A stretch of 64,000 nucleotides of DNA from Kiritimatiellia bacterium (GTDB lineage: Bacteria > Verrucomicrobiota > Kiritimatiellia > JAAZAB01): positions 192,001-256,000 of the forward strand of contig JAXGPF010000006.1 in the NCBI GenBank assembly GCA_040767085.1, written 5' to 3'. This document shows, in pieces, positions 1 to 63,999 of this stretch. Under the pieces are notes generated by a model that worked only from the letters and a program-made list of their open reading frames with translations, was not told the origin of the DNA and searched no databases. The translations under genes were made by a program, and so were the position numbers. The stretch's first letter is position 1; each line of letters starts with the position of its first letter.

Positions 1-425
1 GCGTCTTGATTGCCTTTTTTGCTGCTTTCAAGATTGTTCGCCCAAGGTACTTCAGTGTATCCACGACGTTTGAAAAGGTGGGTTAATGCGCAATGTAGTT
101 CTCCTGGAGCGAGTTTTTCGCCGGCTATAGCGCGAGTTCTGAGTGTGATTGGATCATCTGGCATAATAGCGGGACGCGTTAACCCGAGACGAACCAATTC
201 GCTGGCAAACCATTCCTGGCGATGTTTCCTGCTACGCAGTGTACGGCGTTGTTGTCGGAAAAGCCGGCGCTGTTTTAAATCCGACGTTTCGCTTGGGCAA
301 ATCAGAACACCTGAATCCAAAATATTACTCCCACGGCGTACTGCCCAACCAATTGAGCCGGTTCCAACATCAAATCCAAATACTAAACCTTCGGCAAATG
401 AGTTCAGTTGACGCGAGGGGTTCAC
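1..425 (-). CDS. cas9: Type II CRISPR nuclease Cas9, N-terminal 141 codons (runs off the left edge of the window)
   Basis: Translated by hand from GTG at 425 (AGGAG 8 nt upstream, in-frame TAA further upstream): MNPSRQLNSFAEGLVFGFDVGTGSIGWAVRRGSNILDSGVLICPSETSDLKQRRLFRQQRRTLRSRKHRQEWFASELVRLGLTRPAIMPDDPITLRTRAIAGEKLAPGELHCALTHLFKRRGY... This contains the RuvC-I motif (GFDVGTGSIGWAV), an Arg-rich bridge helix and the REC-start motif PxxLR...ALxHLxKRRGY. The frame is open to position 1. Confidence 0.93.
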   Translation of the reverse strand, partial: MNPSRQLNSFAEGLVFGFDVGTGSIGWAVRRGSNILDSGVLICPSETSDLKQRRLFRQQRRTLRSRKHRQEWFASELVRLGLTRPAIMPDDPITLRTRAIAGEKLAPGELHCALTHLFKRRGYTEVPWANNLESSKKGNQD

Positions 426-3167: not shown

Positions 3168-3178
3168 ATCTTGTGAGT

Positions 3179-3322
3179 TGCTTTCAAAAGCCAGATTTTG
3201 AAAGCAGCATTCAGTAGACAGCAGTCAGTGGTCAGAATAAAGAAGTGTTCGGGATTCGGTGTTCAGTGTTCGGTGTTCGGTTATCCTGAATTCTGAATTC
3301 TTTCAAAACGTGAGTTTTGAAA
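3179..3322. repeat. Heptamer tandem arrays (CAGnnnn and CRGTGTT) bracketed by two TTTCAAAA/TTTTGAAA hairpins
   Basis: Hairpin 3179-3206 (11-bp stem); five CAGnnnn units 3205-3239; six CRGTGTT-like units 3243-3284; CTGAATT x2 at 3286-3299; hairpin 3301-3322 (9-bp stem, GTGA loop). Confidence 0.85.
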
Positions 3323-3359
3323 TTGGTTCTGCCATTTGGCAAGATCAACCCTGCCGGCG

Positions 3360-59832: not shown

Positions 59833-60768
59833 TCACAACCCCTGGCGCAGCACCTGGAGCACCAGCGGGCCAAGGAGCACCAGGAAGACGGCGGGGAAGA
59901 TGAAGGCAATCAGCGGAAAGAGCATTTTCACCGGTGCTTCGTGCGCCAGTTTTTCCGCGCGCAGAAAACGCTTGGCGCGGATTTGATCGGATTGGATGCG
60001 CAGCGTGGCGCCGATGCTCACGCCCATTTCATCGGCCTGCGTCAAGGCCGTCACCAGCGAATGGATGTCCGGCTGGTCCACCCGCCCGGCCATGTGGCGC
60101 AGCGCCTCGCGCCGCGTCTTGCCCAGTTGGATTTCGAACAGCACCCGTCCCAATTCCTCCCCCAGGGCGTCCATTTTCCGCCGCTCGATGATGTTGCGGA
60201 TGGCCGTCATGAAATCCAATCCCGCCTCCACGGAAATGGTCAGGAGATCCATGACAAACGGCAATGCGCGCAGGATTGCGCGATGGCGGAGCGCGACGGC
60301 TTTTTTCAGCCAGAAGCGCGGATAAAACGCCATCCACAGAAACAAGGTCAACGCTAACGCCGCCGGCCGGCCGGACAGGCCTTGACCGGCCGAGGCGAAT
60401 ATACCCAGCATCGCCAGCGCCAGCCCGCCGCCCCAGAGCAGCGGGACGAGCAGGCACAGCGCCAGATACTCCTGCGCGCTCAGGGTATCCTCGTACCCGG
60501 CGGCAGTCAGCCGCGTTTCCAGCCGCGCGCACAGGGGTTGAAACCGGGGACGGTGAAAATAAAACGCCGGGTAGAGGGTCAAGGGCATTAAGGCCCGCAA
60601 CAGCAACGGCAGCCGCCGGGCCTGGCGCGCCAAACCGGCCGCGCCCGGAGCGAGCGGCGCGGCCAGCGTCAACCGCGCCAGGGTCCAACTCAATCCGCAG
60701 GCGAAGACCGCCCACAAGCCTGCCAGCAGGAGTTCCTGCGTGGTAAAATTAAGTCCGGCCGGGTTCAT
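59833..60768 (-). CDS. tadC: Tad pilus assembly platform protein TadC
   Basis: DLLTISVEAGL, GKTRREAL and KMLFPLIAFIFP motifs. Confidence 0.9.
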   Translation of the reverse strand: MNPAGLNFTTQELLLAGLWAVFACGLSWTLARLTLAAPLAPGAAGLARQARRLPLLLRALMPLTLYPAFYFHRPRFQPLCARLETRLTAAGYEDTLSAQEYLALCLLVPLLWGGGLALAMLGIFASAGQGLSGRPAALALTLFLWMAFYPRFWLKKAVALRHRAILRALPFVMDLLTISVEAGLDFMTAIRNIIERRKMDALGEELGRVLFEIQLGKTRREALRHMAGRVDQPDIHSLVTALTQADEMGVSIGATLRIQSDQIRAKRFLRAEKLAHEAPVKMLFPLIAFIFPAVFLVLLGPLVLQVLRQGL

Positions 60769-61664
60769 ATATCAATCGCCACGATTTTGCGGATTAACAA
60801 GGCGCCGATGATTTCCAGAAACAGGATGGCGCCGATCATGGCCAAGCCGACAGGCGAATGGGCGAAGGTGCCCATCATCCGCGGGTCAATGGCAAACATC
60901 ACCGCCGCCAGGATCAAAGGCATCAGCCCTACTACCACCCCCTGCAACCGCCCCTGGGCCGTCAGCGCCAGCACCCGGCCCTGGATGCGGATGCGTTCGC
61001 GGATGGTATGGGCGATTTTTTCAAAAACCTCGGTAAGATTACCGCCGGTCTGCCGGGCGATCTCGATGGCCCGGATCATGATGGTCAAATCCTCGCTGTC
61101 CACCCGACGCTCGAGGTTGCCCAGGGCCTCCTCGAATTTCACGCCAACGCGGGTCTGCTGGAGAAACAGGCTGAATTCCTGCGAAATCGGGTTGCGATTC
61201 TGCTTCACAATCTGCTCGAACGCCTGGAGAATGCTCGACCCGGAACGCAGGGCATTGCTCATGGTCATCAGGGCATCCACCAACTGCTCGTTAAAATCGC
61301 GGCGGCGCTTCTGCTTCAGCATCGCCAGGGCCCGGCCCGGCAGGGTCAACGCCACGCCGCCGGCAAGGCCGCCGACGGCCAACCCGCGCAGCACCCCGGC
61401 CAGCGAGCCGAAATCGCCCACCGCCAGGAAAAACGTCAGGAATACGACCGCCGCCGCCACCCAGGCGATCTCCAGCAGGCGACGGGGCGGGATGAAGTAA
61501 AACATCTCGGCGAATTGCCGCGCCGTGCGCTCGGTATAAACGGCGGCATAACTTTCCGCGCCGGACTGGAGGGCGCGCAGGCAGGCGTAAGCCAGGAGCG
61601 CGAAACTCAAGCCGTACAGCAGCGGAATCAGCCCCAACCATGAAATTTCGTGAAAGTTAAACAT
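60765..61664 (-). CDS. tadB: Tad pilus assembly platform protein TadB
   Basis: QLVDAL..MSNALRSG, QTGGNLTE and ALTAQGR motifs; C-terminal IRKIVAIDI. Confidence 0.92.
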   Translation of the reverse strand: MFNFHEISWLGLIPLLYGLSFALLAYACLRALQSGAESYAAVYTERTARQFAEMFYFIPPRRLLEIAWVAAAVVFLTFFLAVGDFGSLAGVLRGLAVGGLAGGVALTLPGRALAMLKQKRRRDFNEQLVDALMTMSNALRSGSSILQAFEQIVKQNRNPISQEFSLFLQQTRVGVKFEEALGNLERRVDSEDLTIMIRAIEIARQTGGNLTEVFEKIAHTIRERIRIQGRVLALTAQGRLQGVVVGLMPLILAAVMFAIDPRMMGTFAHSPVGLAMIGAILFLEIIGALLIRKIVAIDI

Positions 61665-61667
61665 GGT

Positions 61668-61730
61668 CAGTGGTCAGTGTTCGGGTTTCAGTGTTCGGTG
61701 GTCGGTGTTCAGTGTTCGGTGGTCGGTGAA
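61668..61730. repeat. Heptamer tandem array (9 x CRGTGKT), left arm of the inverted repeat
   Basis: CAGTGGT CAGTGTT CGGGTTT CAGTGTT CGGTGGT CGGTGTT CAGTGTT CGGTGGT CGGTGAA. Confidence 0.92.
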
Positions 61731-62194
61731 GAAGGCCAGCCGGGGTGCCGTAGTTCCCATGCCGTTTCATACTCGCCGGCCGGCTCCGCCACGCTCCAAC
61801 GGCGATCTTTCTCGGGAAGATGCCTTTCCAGCGACTTCTCAATACCATTCAGCATTCGAATGCATTGTTTATAACGCTCTCGATATTTCATGAATACATC
61901 ATTCTTGATGTACCCCTTCAACTTGGCCATAAAAAGGTGATGCAGTGTTTCATCTGCCTCCCCGCGGCTGCGGTTGACCCCCTCAACCTTGTTGCGCACG
62001 TGGCGGTCATCATTTTTCTCGGCCAGTTGTGCGGGTGAACTGTTGGACGACCGCCTTATCTGCGCCCCCAGCTCATACCGTTCCTCTGCCGGCCAGGCAT
62101 GACTGAGATCACATATTTCAATATGTAGTTCACAGAGCTTCTGATAAACTTTCAGGTCCGCCACATCCAAATACGTTTTGGCGGTTTCCTCCAT
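61709..62194 (-). CDS. Four-helix-bundle protein (23S rRNA intervening-sequence protein / bAvd-like family)
   Basis: DLKVYQ, WPAEERYELGAQIRRSSNSSPAQLAE, SRGEADET and RMLNG motifs; GGAGG 6 nt upstream of ATG 62194; visibly lower GC than its neighbours. Confidence 0.9.
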   Translation of the reverse strand: MEETAKTYLDVADLKVYQKLCELHIEICDLSHAWPAEERYELGAQIRRSSNSSPAQLAEKNDDRHVRNKVEGVNRSRGEADETLHHLFMAKLKGYIKNDVFMKYRERYKQCIRMLNGIEKSLERHLPEKDRRWSVAEPAGEYETAWELRHPGWPSSPTTEH

Positions 62195-62203
62195 TCCCAT
62201 CCT

Positions 62204-62269
62204 CCACTGAACACTGAACACCCTTTTCCGTCCTGAACACCGAAATCCGAACACGGCCCGCGGACACTG
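62204..62269. repeat. Heptamer array in inverted orientation, right arm
   Basis: Minus strand reads CCGTGTT CGGATTT CGGTGTT CAG...GGGTGTT CAGTGTT CAGTGG, matching the left-arm units. Confidence 0.88.
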
Positions 62270-62298
62270 CTCCCGCAAACATACACCCCCGCCCCGCT

Positions 62299-63999
62299 TC
62301 ACCGCCGCCGGGCCGGCGGCTCGAACATGGCCATGTCTATTTCCAGGCCGCGGCTGCGGATGTCTTCGATGAAAGTCGGCACCGAACCGGAAGGCTGGAT
62401 GGCGCCGAGGACGCGGCCCTCGGCATCCAGCCCCGTCTGTTTGAACACGAAAATATCCTGCATGGTGATCCGGTCGCCCTCCAGGCCGGCGACTTCCGTA
62501 ACGGCGGTCACCTTGCGCGAGCCGTCGCTCAGGCGGGCGGTCTGGATGATCAGGTGGATGGCCGAAGCGATCTGCTCGCGGATCGCGCGCGAGGGCAGTT
62601 CGATGCCGGACATGAGGGTCATGGTTTCCAGGCGCGAAATCACATCGCGCGGCGAGTTGGCATGCACGGTGGTCAGGGATCCGTCGTGGCCGGTGTTCAT
62701 CGCCTGCAACATGTCCAGGGATTCGCCGCCGCGGCACTCGCCAATGATGATGCGGTCGGGGCGCATGCGCAAGGCGTTGCGCAGCAAATCGCGGATGGTG
62801 ACCGCGCCCCGGCCCTCGATGTTGGGCGGACGCGACTCCAGCCGCACCACGTGCGCCTGGGAGAGGCGCAACTCCGCCGAATCCTCAATCGTGACGATGC
62901 GATCGGTATTCGGCAGGAACGAACTCAGCACGTTCAAGAAGGTAGTTTTACCAGAGCCGGTGCCGCCGGCCACCACGATATTGCGGCGCAGCATGACGCA
63001 CAGGCGGAGGAATTCCGACATGGCGGGGGTCAACGTGCCCAGGCGGATCAAATCCGTCACGCTGAGGGCATCGCGCGCGAATTTGCGGATGGTCAGGCAT
63101 GGCCCGCTCAATGCCAGGGGCGGGATGATGGCATTGACCCGCGAACCATCCTTCAACCGGGCATCCACGTAGGGCTGGCTTTCGTCTATCCGACGGCCGA
63201 TGGGCGCCACGATGCGCTCGATGATGGCCAGCACGGAAGCGTCGTCCAGAAACACCCGGTCGCTCAACACCAGCCGGCCGCGCTTTTCCACGTAGATCTG
63301 GTCATGGCGGTTGACCATGATTTCCGTGATCTCGGGATCGGCCAGCATATCCTCCAGCGGCCCCAACCCCACCGCTTCGTCGTAAATTTCCTTGATCAGC
63401 ACCGCCGGCTCGATCCAGGCCGGCAGCCGCTGGCGCACTTCCTGGACGATCTGCTCCAGGGTCTGGCGCACCCGCTGGTGCAAATCCGCCTCCTGGATGT
63501 GGGAGGCCGTCAGCCGCTTCATATCCAGCCGCTCGAGCAGCACGGTGTGAATCTGCCGCTTCATCTGCCGCTTCTGTTCCTGCGCCGGATCGGCCCGCAA
63601 AACTTCCGACTGGGAAGGGACCGTCGAATCGCGCGGCGCGCGGACAGTGGCGCCAGGCGGCGGCGCGGCCGCCGGCGCTGGGGCCGGCGGCGGCGCCGCC
63701 GGCCGGCGCACTACCAGGCCGTATTCGCCGCAGCGGATTTCCTGGCCCGGCTTGTACGGGGCGCGCCCCCGCACCGGCGCGCCGTCCAGCATGGTGCCCA
63801 AGCCGCTGTCGAGGTCCTCCACAAAAAATCCGTCTTCGCGCAGCAGCAAGATCGCGTGCCGGCGCGCGACGGCGGCGTCGGGGATGACGATTTTATTGCC
63901 CCGTTCCGAGCCGATGGGGTACACTCCCATGGGCACCAGCTGCTGTTGCAGCGGCGTCCCGGCATGGTTGATTTCCAGTTGGAGCAAATTTTCTGACAT
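62299..63999 (-). CDS. cpaF: Tad pilus ATPase CpaF/TadA with an N-terminal FHA-like domain (start at the window edge, may extend further)
   Basis: GLGPLE, RRIDESQPYVDARL, GGTGSGKT, LRMRPDRIIIGECRG and QAMNTGHDGS motifs. Confidence 0.93.
   Translation of the reverse strand: MSENLLQLEINHAGTPLQQQLVPMGVYPIGSERGNKIVIPDAAVARRHAILLLREDGFFVEDLDSGLGTMLDGAPVRGRAPYKPGQEIRCGEYGLVVRRPAAPPPAPAPAAAPPPGATVRAPRDSTVPSQSEVLRADPAQEQKRQMKRQIHTVLLERLDMKRLTASHIQEADLHQRVRQTLEQIVQEVRQRLPAWIEPAVLIKEIYDEAVGLGPLEDMLADPEITEIMVNRHDQIYVEKRGRLVLSDRVFLDDASVLAIIERIVAPIGRRIDESQPYVDARLKDGSRVNAIIPPLALSGPCLTIRKFARDALSVTDLIRLGTLTPAMSEFLRLCVMLRRNIVVAGGTGSGKTTFLNVLSSFLPNTDRIVTIEDSAELRLSQAHVVRLESRPPNIEGRGAVTIRDLLRNALRMRPDRIIIGECRGGESLDMLQAMNTGHDGSLTTVHANSPRDVISRLETMTLMSGIELPSRAIREQIASAIHLIIQTARLSDGSRKVTAVTEVAGLEGDRITMQDIFVFKQTGLDAEGRVLGAIQPSGSVPTFIEDIRSRGLEIDMAMFEPPARRR

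Follow-up and report, generated by a model that had tools for sequence, protein, structure and literature searches.

A heptamer-armed PF05635 cassette between cpaF and tadB of a Kiritimatiellia bacterium, one of a widespread and apparently undescribed kind

Between the pilus genes cpaF and tadB of the window, the whole stretch of 64,000 nucleotides that was analysed, lies a gene for a four-helix-bundle protein of the family PF05635/TIGR02436, enclosed by tandem arrays of a 7-nt unit that face each other as inverted repeats. Compared sequences show that this cassette is an insertion, variably present among close relatives, and that it belongs to a widespread kind of heptamer-armed PF05635 cassette that is apparently undescribed. 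On balance, it is best explained as a horizontally spread guest that is read through with the tad transcript, carries a stem probably cut by RNase III, encodes a protein that may bind its own arms and is tolerated by the pilus genes.

Anatomy of the cassette and its predicted stem

The cassette stretch covers 634 bp on the minus strand and is oriented in the direction of transcription; the neighbours of its gene are cpaF, tadB and tadC. The upstream host gene encodes a cpaF-type pilus ATPase (62299..63999) with an N-terminal FHA domain (PF00498, E 9e-12) and a T2SSE domain (PF00437, E 4e-64), and ends with a TGA at 62301-62299. The downstream host gene is tadB (60765..61664), a T2SSF protein (PF00482, E 5e-18). 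As the initial annotation had recognised, the gene between them (61709..62194, 161 aa) is lower in GC and flanked by opposed heptamer arrays. The GC content is 52.5% in the cassette vs 61-65% in the neighbours, and GC3 58% vs 80-85%, a composition that is by these measures foreign to the host.

On the 5' side, a G-rich spacer of degenerate heptamer-like units (62257..62298, minus strand) leads from the cpaF stop to the outer arm CCGTGTT CGGATTT CGGTGTT CAGG (62232..62256, minus strand), and the inner arm GGGTGTTCAGTGTTCAGTGG (62204..62223, minus strand) overlaps the GGAGG of the cassette gene (62205-62201). On the 3' side, the inner arm CCACCGAACACTGAACACCG (61703..61722, minus strand) holds the stop codon TGA (61711-61709) and is followed by an outer arm of units GAACACT, GAAACCC and GACCACT (61665..61702, minus strand); both outer arms are defined by sequence and by inverted-repeat match. 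The repeated 7-mer reads GTGTTCR in the 5' arms and the complement of this in the 3' arms, and the G+T content of the 5' arm (0.68) places the G-rich arm first. The whole 3' array (61728 to 61665) encodes the last four codons and the stop of the 161-aa gene. It had been thought to end 3 nt before the tadB ATG (61664-61662); the degenerate array in fact reaches the base directly before this ATG.

No promoter-like site was found in the cassette by a scan for the sigma-70-type consensus only. The terminator scan gave a single terminator-like site, inside tadB and none in the cassette, which is no more than in shuffled sequences. Neither an outer inverted repeat nor a target duplication nor an adjoining transposase was seen at this copy; the repeat search found no long direct repeat around the gene, and PADLOC gave no defence-family match. 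The initial annotation was also right that no reverse transcriptase adjoins the gene: the sole RVT_1 gene of the genome lies on another contig (C22).

The protein matches PF05635 with 76.7 bits (E 2e-21; curated cut-off 33.8) and TIGR02436 with 74.5 bits (E 7e-21; cut-off 24). Its AlphaFold model (pLDDT 84) consists of helices 8-32, 36-59, 66-92 and 98-123, with residues 124-161 at low confidence. The best PDB matches have the XCC0516/BT_0352-like fold: 2gsc (TMt 0.87, rmsd 1.4, E 1e-4) and 2rld (TMt 0.84-0.89). Of the two kinships claimed initially, that to the family of XCC0516 and BT_0352 is thus clear in the modelled fold, and that to the Avd protein of diversity-generating retroelements (DGRs) is seen and weaker. 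The dN/dS of 0.13 between the gene and its orthologue in a related genome (G001, below) indicates that it is under purifying selection. XCC0516 is reported as a homopentamer in the available text of PMC4990558 (citing Lin 2006).

The arms contain two inverted repeats, 61666-61696 with 62235-62265 (31 nt, 81%) and 61704-61722 with 62204-62222 (19 nt, 95%). Allowing at most one mismatch, the two-unit pattern CRGTGTTCRGTGTT matches eight times in the window vs 0.04 expected, and none of 100 shuffles reached eight. The arms had been proposed to pair over the ribosome-binding site and stop codon of the gene, and the predictions bear this out. The minimum-energy fold of 61655-62305 pairs them (-255.4 kcal/mol, z -3.6, 0/20 shuffles as good), and a co-fold of the flanks only gives 65 pairs (-92.2 kcal/mol), the outermost being 62306/61652, with a net gain of -57.9 vs -31.9 +/- 5.3 in 200 shuffles (best shuffle -48.9). 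The predicted stem spans the GGAGG and the stop codon of the cassette gene; at its base, where spacer 62257-62298 pairs with the tadB start region, it juxtaposes the stop of cpaF and the start of tadB.

Complementarity can reflect selection on the sense RNA or complementarity at the DNA level, and mismatches between arms were sorted accordingly into G.U and A.C types. The first 31 loci gave 34 G.U-type vs 55 A.C-type mismatches, and 35 other-subfamily loci gave 49 vs 55 on the sense strand (p 0.62), so that there is no sign of pairing selected in sense RNA rather than in DNA. The arms can also be unequal in length, as in G001, where the 3' array is ~250 nt long and the 5' side much shorter.

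Turnover at the cpaF-tadB junction

The junction was compared in five genomes of the genus: G000, which is the genome of the window, G001, G002, G003 and G004. The cassette fills the site in G000 and G001, with proteins 89% identical. G002 has instead a gene-less hairpin of another unit, G003 a remnant of that hairpin and G004 a plain 31-nt spacer, and none of 25 more distant relatives, whose cpaF-tadB gaps measure ~30-50 nt, has the cassette at this place. Furthermore, in a DNA contig of run X2, from a 93%-identical relative, a mere 33 other letters separate 61657 from 62301.

The local tree, rooted on G004, reads (G000,(G001,(G002,G003))), each of its two internal nodes being at 100, and it places the loss or replacement of the cassette in the branch of G002 and G003. 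The dS between G000 and G001 is 0.44 for the cassette gene, 0.44 for cpaF and 0.58 for tadB; the cassette has been at the junction since the two genomes diverged. The comparison of junctions, which had been expected to reveal presence or absence and exact borders, yielded the former. No border finer than the interval from the cpaF stop to the tadB start can be drawn, because the spacers of G003, G004 and X2 share no sequence with that of the window. The 26-nt spacer of the X2 variant holds one GAACACC unit, which may be a footprint or may have been there beforehand as a target.

The position of the stem could also suit a domesticated regulator of the tad genes, in which the stem would couple or uncouple the translation of cpaF and tadB, or set their ratio, and the protein would tune it. 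Such a role would agree with a predicted stem base that joins the stop of one gene and the start of the other, with an array abutting the tadB ATG, with a tadB devoid of Shine-Dalgarno sequence and with a cassette kept under low dN/dS since the split of G000 and G001. However, the lack of a Shine-Dalgarno sequence, correctly noticed at first, is not specific to the cassette, as none was found before tadB in any of the five genus sequences, with filled or empty sites. Furthermore, the cassette occupies only 2/5 junctions in the genus and 0/25 beyond it, it has gone from G002 and G003, and the same subfamily lies beside unrelated genes in at least 60 other MAGs. Regulation of the tad genes is accordingly improbable. 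Nothing points to the control of pilus genes or the translational bypass that the initial annotation had envisaged, since the subfamily occupies numerous unrelated sites across five phyla and the cassette has disappeared from, or been replaced in, sister species. The cassette would rather be a guest tolerated by the pilus genes than a purpose-built regulator.

The armed design in other genomes

The kind of cassette is defined here by inverted tandem arrays of 6-8-nt units on both sides of a PF05635 gene, with the G-rich arm first; the window cassette has this form and shares its unit type with close protein relatives elsewhere. PF05635/TIGR02436 genes occur in 142/201 genomes of the phylum, often in many copies. 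Among 31 loci of the phylum picked by HMM score only, the flanks of 29 score higher for inverted repeats than every one of their own shifted controls, and the lag that fits best is 7 in 25/31 upstream and 26/31 downstream flanks. In the protein subfamily of the window, 78 loci were usable; 75 score above the 95th percentile of 294 shifted controls, and 57 above the highest control. When each MAG contributes a single locus, these counts become 64/67 and 47/67, the loci coming from five phyla and having period 7 with few exceptions. In 64 of the 67 independent loci, the G-rich arm precedes the other. The inverted heptamer flanks for which the initial annotation had suggested screening the family are present at most of the loci surveyed.

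Across five phyla, the subfamily proteins share 62-70% identity, and the genes beside which they lie are unrelated, the start of the downstream gene being often equally near. Orientation relative to both neighbours was scored at 58 loci: 43 cassettes are co-oriented, 3 opposed, 11 mixed and 1 unknown, which fits a dependence on host read-through.

The unit type tracks the protein lineage and not the host genome. Relatives with 62-89% protein identity, in five phyla, carry units GTGTTCR, GGTGTCA or GGTTTCA. Unit sharing is correlated with protein identity (Spearman 0.42; 0/999 Mantel permutations as high): arm 7-mers are shared in 68/83 pairs with at least 0.8 identity, 181/381 pairs with 0.6-0.8 and 14/2092 pairs below 60%. 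Pairs from the same genome (n=42) have a mean unit sharing of only 0.016. For example, the second PF05635 gene of G000 is also armed, with a different 8-nt unit.

Arrays of GGGAGCA / TGCTCCC units flank four-helix-bundle genes on pNFSY06 of Nostoc flagelliforme and on a plasmid of Tolypothrix PCC 7910. The plasmid search gave only 4 matches, all distant (28-36% identity) and cyanobacterial. In viral contigs, 64 stretches with the pattern matched the subfamily alignment and none was confirmed. A literature search, with subscription journals outside its coverage, found no description of heptamer-armed PF05635 cassettes.

These surveys contradict the idea that ordinary intergenic microsatellites happen to flank a small gene. 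GTGTTCR arrays are indeed common in the intergenic regions of G000 without any such gene, as chance would have it. However, chance accounts neither for 29/31 phylum and 64/67 subfamily loci beating their shifted controls, nor for the enclosure of the other PF05635 gene of G000 by another unit. The same holds for the different units that each track their protein within one genome and for the two named plasmids that show the same design. A fortuitous association is thus highly improbable.

The gene-less arrays form a genome-wide repeat class, with ~35 loci in G000. Neither this class nor the tie between unit and protein lineage appeared in the initial annotation. The two-unit pattern has 302 exact matches in G001 and 34 in G000, and a reversed-pattern control has 0. 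The gene-less array noted earlier at 3243-3284 exists, and is only the central part of a larger, composite hairpin (~3176..3325), in which two TTTCAAAAG..TTTTGAAA mini-hairpins flank both the heptamer arms (CAGTAGA / GAATTCT type) and the GTGTTCR array. It is the same type of element as the filler of the G002 junction. Arms nested in this way occur at locus L065, at the G002 junction and at 3176-3325 of the window. Arrays are present in 7/8 relatives with a subfamily gene vs 12/33 without (Fisher p 0.016, the genomes being kin and not independent), and they persist in G002, G003 and G014, where the gene was not found.

One MAG carries eight copies, 98-100% identical over ~660 bp, whose arrays lie inside terminal inverted repeats of ~24 bp. 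Exact 8-bp target duplications flank three of them (L111, L136 and L139); the case of L126 is ambiguous, L118 has none, and three copies are in tandem arrangements where a duplication is unreadable. These terminal repeats were sought in the 80 subfamily loci and in G000, and found elsewhere only as weak matches with 4-6 mismatches; the 72 other subfamily loci gave a single one, with 6 mismatches. On this evidence they are a local vehicle and not general cassette ends.

The repeats and duplications of this MAG and the dispersed gene-less arrays speak for a life cycle at the DNA level. The arrays could be the functional termini of a mobile DNA that is not autonomous, as hairpins or cruciforms or as passengers in transposon ends, with a protein that recruits enzymes encoded elsewhere as a specificity factor and with mRNA pairing as a side effect. 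The nested arms, the absence of wobble bias, the association of arrays with the gene and the high protein identity across phyla would all agree with it. However, the terminal repeats of the eight-copy MAG are not general, the window copy shows neither target duplication nor outer repeat, arrays occur in three genomes in which no such gene was found, and no recombinase is linked, the sole reverse transcriptase of G000 being on another contig. The ratio of 43 co-oriented to 3 opposed cassettes is easier to understand if host transcription is required. We consider this DNA-level reading possible and rather unlikely.

Proposed life cycle and relation to known systems

In the favoured explanation, that of a guest read with its host operon, the cassette would be transcribed within the tad RNA by read-through, and its arms would pair there into a long interrupted stem holding the cpaF stop, the ribosome-binding site and stop codon of the cassette and the tadB start. 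RNase III would cut this stem, as in 23S rRNA intervening sequences (IVSs), splitting the operon RNA and releasing that of the cassette. The protein could most likely bind its own arms, as RNA or DNA, and thereby regulate itself or help the cassette persist.

Metatranscriptome X20 contains only three short contigs 100% identical to the window (60765-60941, 61287-61423 and 62100-62244), for which DNA carry-over is possible and which show neither ends nor strand; its coverage gaps carry no meaning. Further joints within cpaF were set aside, being due to low-identity contigs from other organisms. G000 encodes an RNase III, and RNase III excision of the analogous stem of Coxiella is published (PMC4990558, available text), by analogy with which the cassette stem is probably an RNase III site.

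The closest likeness is indeed to the ORF-bearing IVSs of 23S rRNA (Coxiella burnetii helix 45, Leptospira, Xanthomonas-type S23p). The available text of PMC4990558 describes these as ~0.4-0.6 kb long, with complementary ends that form a stem and a single PF05635 (S23p) ORF enclosed in its loop, and as sporadic, lower in GC than their host and horizontally acquired. As anticipated in the initial annotation, the cassette has the same stem-loop and ORF anatomy, with terminal complementary sequences predicted to form an enclosing stem, and lies co-oriented inside an operon. IVSs are embedded in host RNA and co-transcribed according to the same text, as would be the cassette. However, the cassette sits in the spacer of an mRNA operon and not in helix 9, 25 or 45 of 23S rRNA, and its arms are 7-nt arrays of variable copy number with ~65 predicted pairs and internal loops. 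The Coxiella IVS has a near-perfect 28-bp stem, for which that text mentions no tandem units (PMC4990558). Its ORF is reported there to be decaying and probably untranslated in vivo, whereas the cassette gene is under purifying selection. RNase III cleavage is reported there as demonstrated for the Coxiella IVS (PMC4990558) and would apply to the cassette by analogy only.

Avd of DGRs (4dwl, 8ub7) is likewise a four-helix bundle (target-normalised TM-score 0.73-0.83). However, it shares 7-11% identity with the cassette protein, with Foldseek E-values of 0.1-0.6, and the best solved relatives of the latter, 2gsc and 2rld, are not DGR proteins. The cassette also differs from DGRs in having no nearby reverse transcriptase or template/variable repeat pair. 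Solved members of the Avd and PF05635 families are pentameric, and Avd contacts nucleic acid and reverse transcriptase.

Other resemblances concern the repeats. The cyanobacterial STRR sequences are tandem heptamers dispersed in intergenic regions, with no function assigned, and the arrays resemble these and other long intergenic simple-sequence repeats in being dispersed intergenic tandem heptamers. We know of no description of STRR sequences that links them to PF05635 genes, inverted pairing or a G-rich-arm-first polarity, and a literature search on STRR and heptamer repeats, subscription journals being outside its coverage, found none. MITEs and REP/BIME sequences are small non-autonomous intergenic repeats that form hairpins, are mobilised in trans and are found in operon spacers. 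The cassettes of the eight-copy MAG resemble them by their terminal inverted repeats and 8-bp target duplications, in this one lineage only. Unlike them, the cassette carries a conserved protein gene, and its ends are tandem arrays and not unique inverted repeats.

The design thus combines subfamily-specific repeat arms around a conserved gene, a fixed polarity, co-orientation with the host genes and turnover within a genus. It shows that structured guests of ~0.6 kb fit between genes otherwise ~30-50 nt apart, the operon apparently not being destroyed. The copies on named cyanobacterial plasmids provide culturable systems for its study.

To our knowledge, PF05635/TIGR02436 is a very large family with no assigned function, rRNA intervening sequences have gone unexplained since the early 1990s, and dispersed heptamer repeats are also an old puzzle. 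The cassette design links the three. A broader and more tentative proposal, which we regard as unlikely for now, is that PF05635 proteins are specificity factors of a novel class of self-propagating repeat elements, each subfamily recognising its own 7-nt unit. With host enzymes, such a protein would seed or maintain inverted arrays of its unit, the G-rich strand always running 5' to 3' inwards, and would prefer existing hairpin loops as targets, such as operon spacers, other repeat hairpins or rRNA tetraloops. If true, this would cover 23S rRNA intervening sequences, STRR-like arrays, nested hairpins and the relatives of Avd outside DGRs.

Anatomy of the cassette between cpaF and tadB

Profile matches, repeat search and base composition all confirm the GC-poor PF05635 gene, enclosed by inverted arrays, that the initial annotation had placed between cpaF and tadB. 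On the minus strand, the stop codon of cpaF (FHA and T2SSE ATPase; 62301-62299) is followed by a G-rich spacer and then by two 5' arms, the outer being CCGTGTT-CGGATTT-CGGTGTT-CAGG (62256-62232) and the inner GGGTGTTCAGTGTTCAGTGG (62223-62204), which overlaps a GGAGG. Next come the 161-aa ORF (62194-61709; PF05635 E 2e-21, TIGR02436 E 7e-21) and, on the 3' side, an array of the complementary unit (61728-61665), which supplies the ORF with its stop codon and the codons of its final four residues. This array directly abuts the ATG of tadB (61664, minus strand) and does not stop 3 nt short of it, as had been claimed. The gene has a GC content of 52.5% and a GC3 of 58%, versus 61-65% and 80-85% in its surroundings.

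An inverted-repeat search pairs the arms over 31 nt (81%) and 19 nt (95%), and the two-unit pattern has 8 matches in the window versus 0.04 expected. The arms are also paired in the predicted fold of the whole cassette stretch (z -3.6), and the two flanks co-folded alone give 65 predicted pairs (-92.2 kcal/mol), with a net gain of -57.9 versus -31.9 +/- 5.3 in shuffles. The initial description is thus correct, apart from where the 3' array ends and from the extent of the gene-less array at 3243-3284.

The AlphaFold model of the protein is a four-helix bundle with a tail (residues 124-161) that bears conserved RRW and GWP motifs despite being poorly modelled. Its closest solved relatives are XCC0516 (2gsc) and BT_0352 (2rld); Avd chains of diversity-generating retroelements (DGRs) align with TMt 0.73-0.83 and weak E-values.

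Turnover of the junction within the genus

The cpaF-tadB junction was extracted from 30 genomes, five of the genus and 25 more distant ones. The cassette is present in the window's own genome (G000) and in G001, where the protein is 89% identical and the 3' array is expanded to about 250 nt. At the junction of G002 lies a hairpin without a gene, whose CAGTATT/AATTCTG arms stand between TTTCAAAAG..TTTTGAAA mini-hairpins; G003 keeps a 50-nt remnant of this hairpin type, and G004 has a plain spacer of 31 nt. In the 25 more distant relatives, the gaps are about 30-50 nt and no PF05635 gene is found at the junction. Furthermore, a metagenome DNA contig from a 93%-identical relative joins 61657 to 62301 through 33 other letters, which include one GAACACC unit. 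The cassette is therefore variably present: it is an insertion, at a site that turns over within the genus.

In a local tree with G004 as the root, the topology is (G000,(G001,(G002,G003))) and support is 100 at both nodes. Between G000 and G001, dS is 0.44 for the cassette gene versus 0.44 and 0.58 for its neighbours, and dN/dS of the gene is 0.13. Because of this topology, neighbour-like dS and low dN/dS, the cassette must already have been present when G000-G003 split, was kept functional, and was replaced in the branch of G002 and G003. The absence of a Shine-Dalgarno before tadB, reported initially, is real but not attributable to the cassette, since all five genus sequences lack one, empty sites included.

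A general design whose unit follows the protein

Of 201 genomes of the phylum, 142 contain PF05635. Among 31 loci selected on HMM score only (29 new ones and the two of G000), the inverted-repeat score of the flanks exceeds all of the locus's own shifted controls in 29, and the best lag is 7 nt for 25 of the upstream and 26 of the downstream flanks; unit sequences vary widely from locus to locus. The subfamily of the window protein is tight (2193 proteins at E<=1e-5, the best 120 of the 2193 being at least 67% identical). Its hosts are MAGs named Verrucomicrobiota/Kiritimatiellae/Lentisphaerae, Desulfobacterota, Armatimonadetes, Sumerlaeota and Bacteroidota. Of 80 subfamily loci, 78 had usable flanks: measured against 294 shifted controls, 75 of these score above the 95th percentile and 57 above the maximum, with period 7 as the best lag in 72 and 73. 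With one locus per MAG, and the likely orthologue L062 dropped, these scores hold for 64/67 and 47/67. The design, which joins inverted arrays to a PF05635 gene, is general, and chance juxtaposition of the two is a poorly supported and extremely improbable explanation.

Close relatives lie at unrelated sites, where outside the ORF only the arrays are common with the window, and their array often ends 5-45 nt upstream of the start of the next gene. That the cassette, inserted here in a pilus operon, is a dedicated pilus regulator is likewise poorly supported, and we regard it as very unlikely. The sole other PF05635 gene of G000 lies between arms as well, built from a different, 8-nt unit, and again has its stop codon inside the array. 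This second gene (116 aa; contig C23, 1200-1920 of its locus) has arms of the GGTGTTAA / CCYTAACA type and, upstream, a ~62-nt repeat in four to five tandem copies, each with the arm motif. The enclosed design also occurs on two cyanobacterial plasmids, pNFSY06 of Nostoc flagelliforme (L164 330-800) and one of Tolypothrix PCC 7910 (L165 300-830), where genes annotated as "four helix bundle protein" have GGGAGCA arrays upstream and TGCTCCC arrays downstream. On the latter, a tyrosine recombinase gene comes next after the cassette.

Unit and protein were compared in 72 loci, 43 from other subfamilies, where four of the genomes contribute 4-6 copies, and 29 picked from the 78 subfamily loci, one per record. 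Sharing of arm 7-mers rises with protein identity (Spearman 0.42, reached by 0/999 Mantel permutations): it exceeds 0.2 in 68/83 pairs at >=80% identity, 181/381 at 60-80% and 14/2092 below 60%. Mean sharing is 0.016 in 42 same-genome pairs. The coupling of unit to protein identity does not amount to many independent events, because one subfamily dominates the high-identity bins; two independent within-genome pairs (L154/L155 and L143/L146) also show it. As judged from these comparisons, unit type tracks protein lineage, not host genome. The 5' arm has more G than C in 64/67 subfamily loci and in 32/35 other-subfamily loci with a clear inverted repeat, a polarity valid on both strands because the repeat is inverted.

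A probable RNA stem or possible DNA ends

The reading that we favour, with modest confidence, is that of a guest cassette. It would reach the cpaF-tadB site by horizontal spread, and read-through of the host operon would supply its transcription. Its arms would pair into a long stem within the operon RNA, and the protein would most likely act on its own arms. Cleavage of the stem is suggested by analogy with intervening sequences (IVSs) of 23S rRNA bearing the PF05635 protein S23p, which are excised by RNase III (PMC4990558). Both have an S23p-type ORF in a stem-forming element. Processing, binding and movement of the cassette are all what we infer.

Neighbour orientation, called by a longest-ORF heuristic, is that of the cassette gene on both sides in 43 of 58 subfamily loci (3 against, 11 mixed, 1 unclassified) and in 13 of 26 from other subfamilies (3, 8 and 2). 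A scan of the cassette found no sigma-70-like promoter and no terminator inside, and G000 has an RNase III gene. Three short identical metatranscriptome contigs cover tadB and the 5' part of the cassette, which proves little. Among arm mismatches, G.U is not in excess over A.C (49:55), and they thus do not demonstrate that sense-RNA pairing is under selection.

The main rival, which we consider rather unlikely, gives the arms their role at the DNA level: they would be the ends of a non-autonomous mobile element, and the RNA stem would be incidental. One MAG carries eight cassette copies (L098, L104, L111, L117, L118, L126, L136 and L139), 98-100% identical over about 660 bp, with terminal inverted repeats of about 24 bp outside the cassette; 8-bp target duplications are exact in three copies, ambiguous in one and lacking in one, the three others being tandem or partial. 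Apart from weak hits with 4-6 mismatches, this terminal repeat is absent from the other subfamily loci searched and from G000. GTGTTCR arrays that enclose no gene are found at about 35 sites of G000, one of them being a 22-unit hairpin (contig C26, 83819-84091). There, between two genes (83813-84140), the 22 units are followed by a ~100-nt loop and a short complementary array. In 41 relatives, which are kin and not independent, GTGTTCR arrays occur in 7/8 genomes with a subfamily gene and in 12/33 without. Exact two-unit matches number 302 in G001 but 34 in G000, while G002 and G003 have 10-16 (reversed-pattern control, 0-1), and array load thus differs roughly ten-fold between species of one genus.

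Arms can also be nested in arms of another unit or in other hairpins, as in L065, at the G002 junction and at 3176-3325 of the window. In L065 (1350-2100), GTGTTCR arms and gene lie inside a second arm pair, GTTCTTC / GAAGAAC. The gene-less array initially annotated at 3243-3284 does exist, but as part of the larger composite hairpin at 3176-3325 and not as a stand-alone array; here, two TTTCAAAAG-N-TTTTGAAA mini-hairpins surround heptamer arms together with a GTGTTCR array. In G000 as a whole, the motif of these mini-hairpins is found 15 times and forms an enclosing pair twice, and this element type also occupies the G002 cpaF-tadB spacer. G000 yielded a single reverse transcriptase, a 600-aa ORF whose lone domain is RVT_1. 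It lies beside a DUF7017 protein (contig C22; 1024-2826 of its locus) and has no linkage to either PF05635 gene.

The RNA-stem and DNA-end readings are not mutually exclusive. Full-text searching, whose coverage stops at subscription journals, found no literature linking PF05635 genes to heptamer arms. What the window locus adds is a gain and a replacement dated within one genus, a unit conserved across phyla within one protein subfamily, a count of co-orientation with host genes and, for one lineage, terminal inverted repeats accompanied by target duplications.
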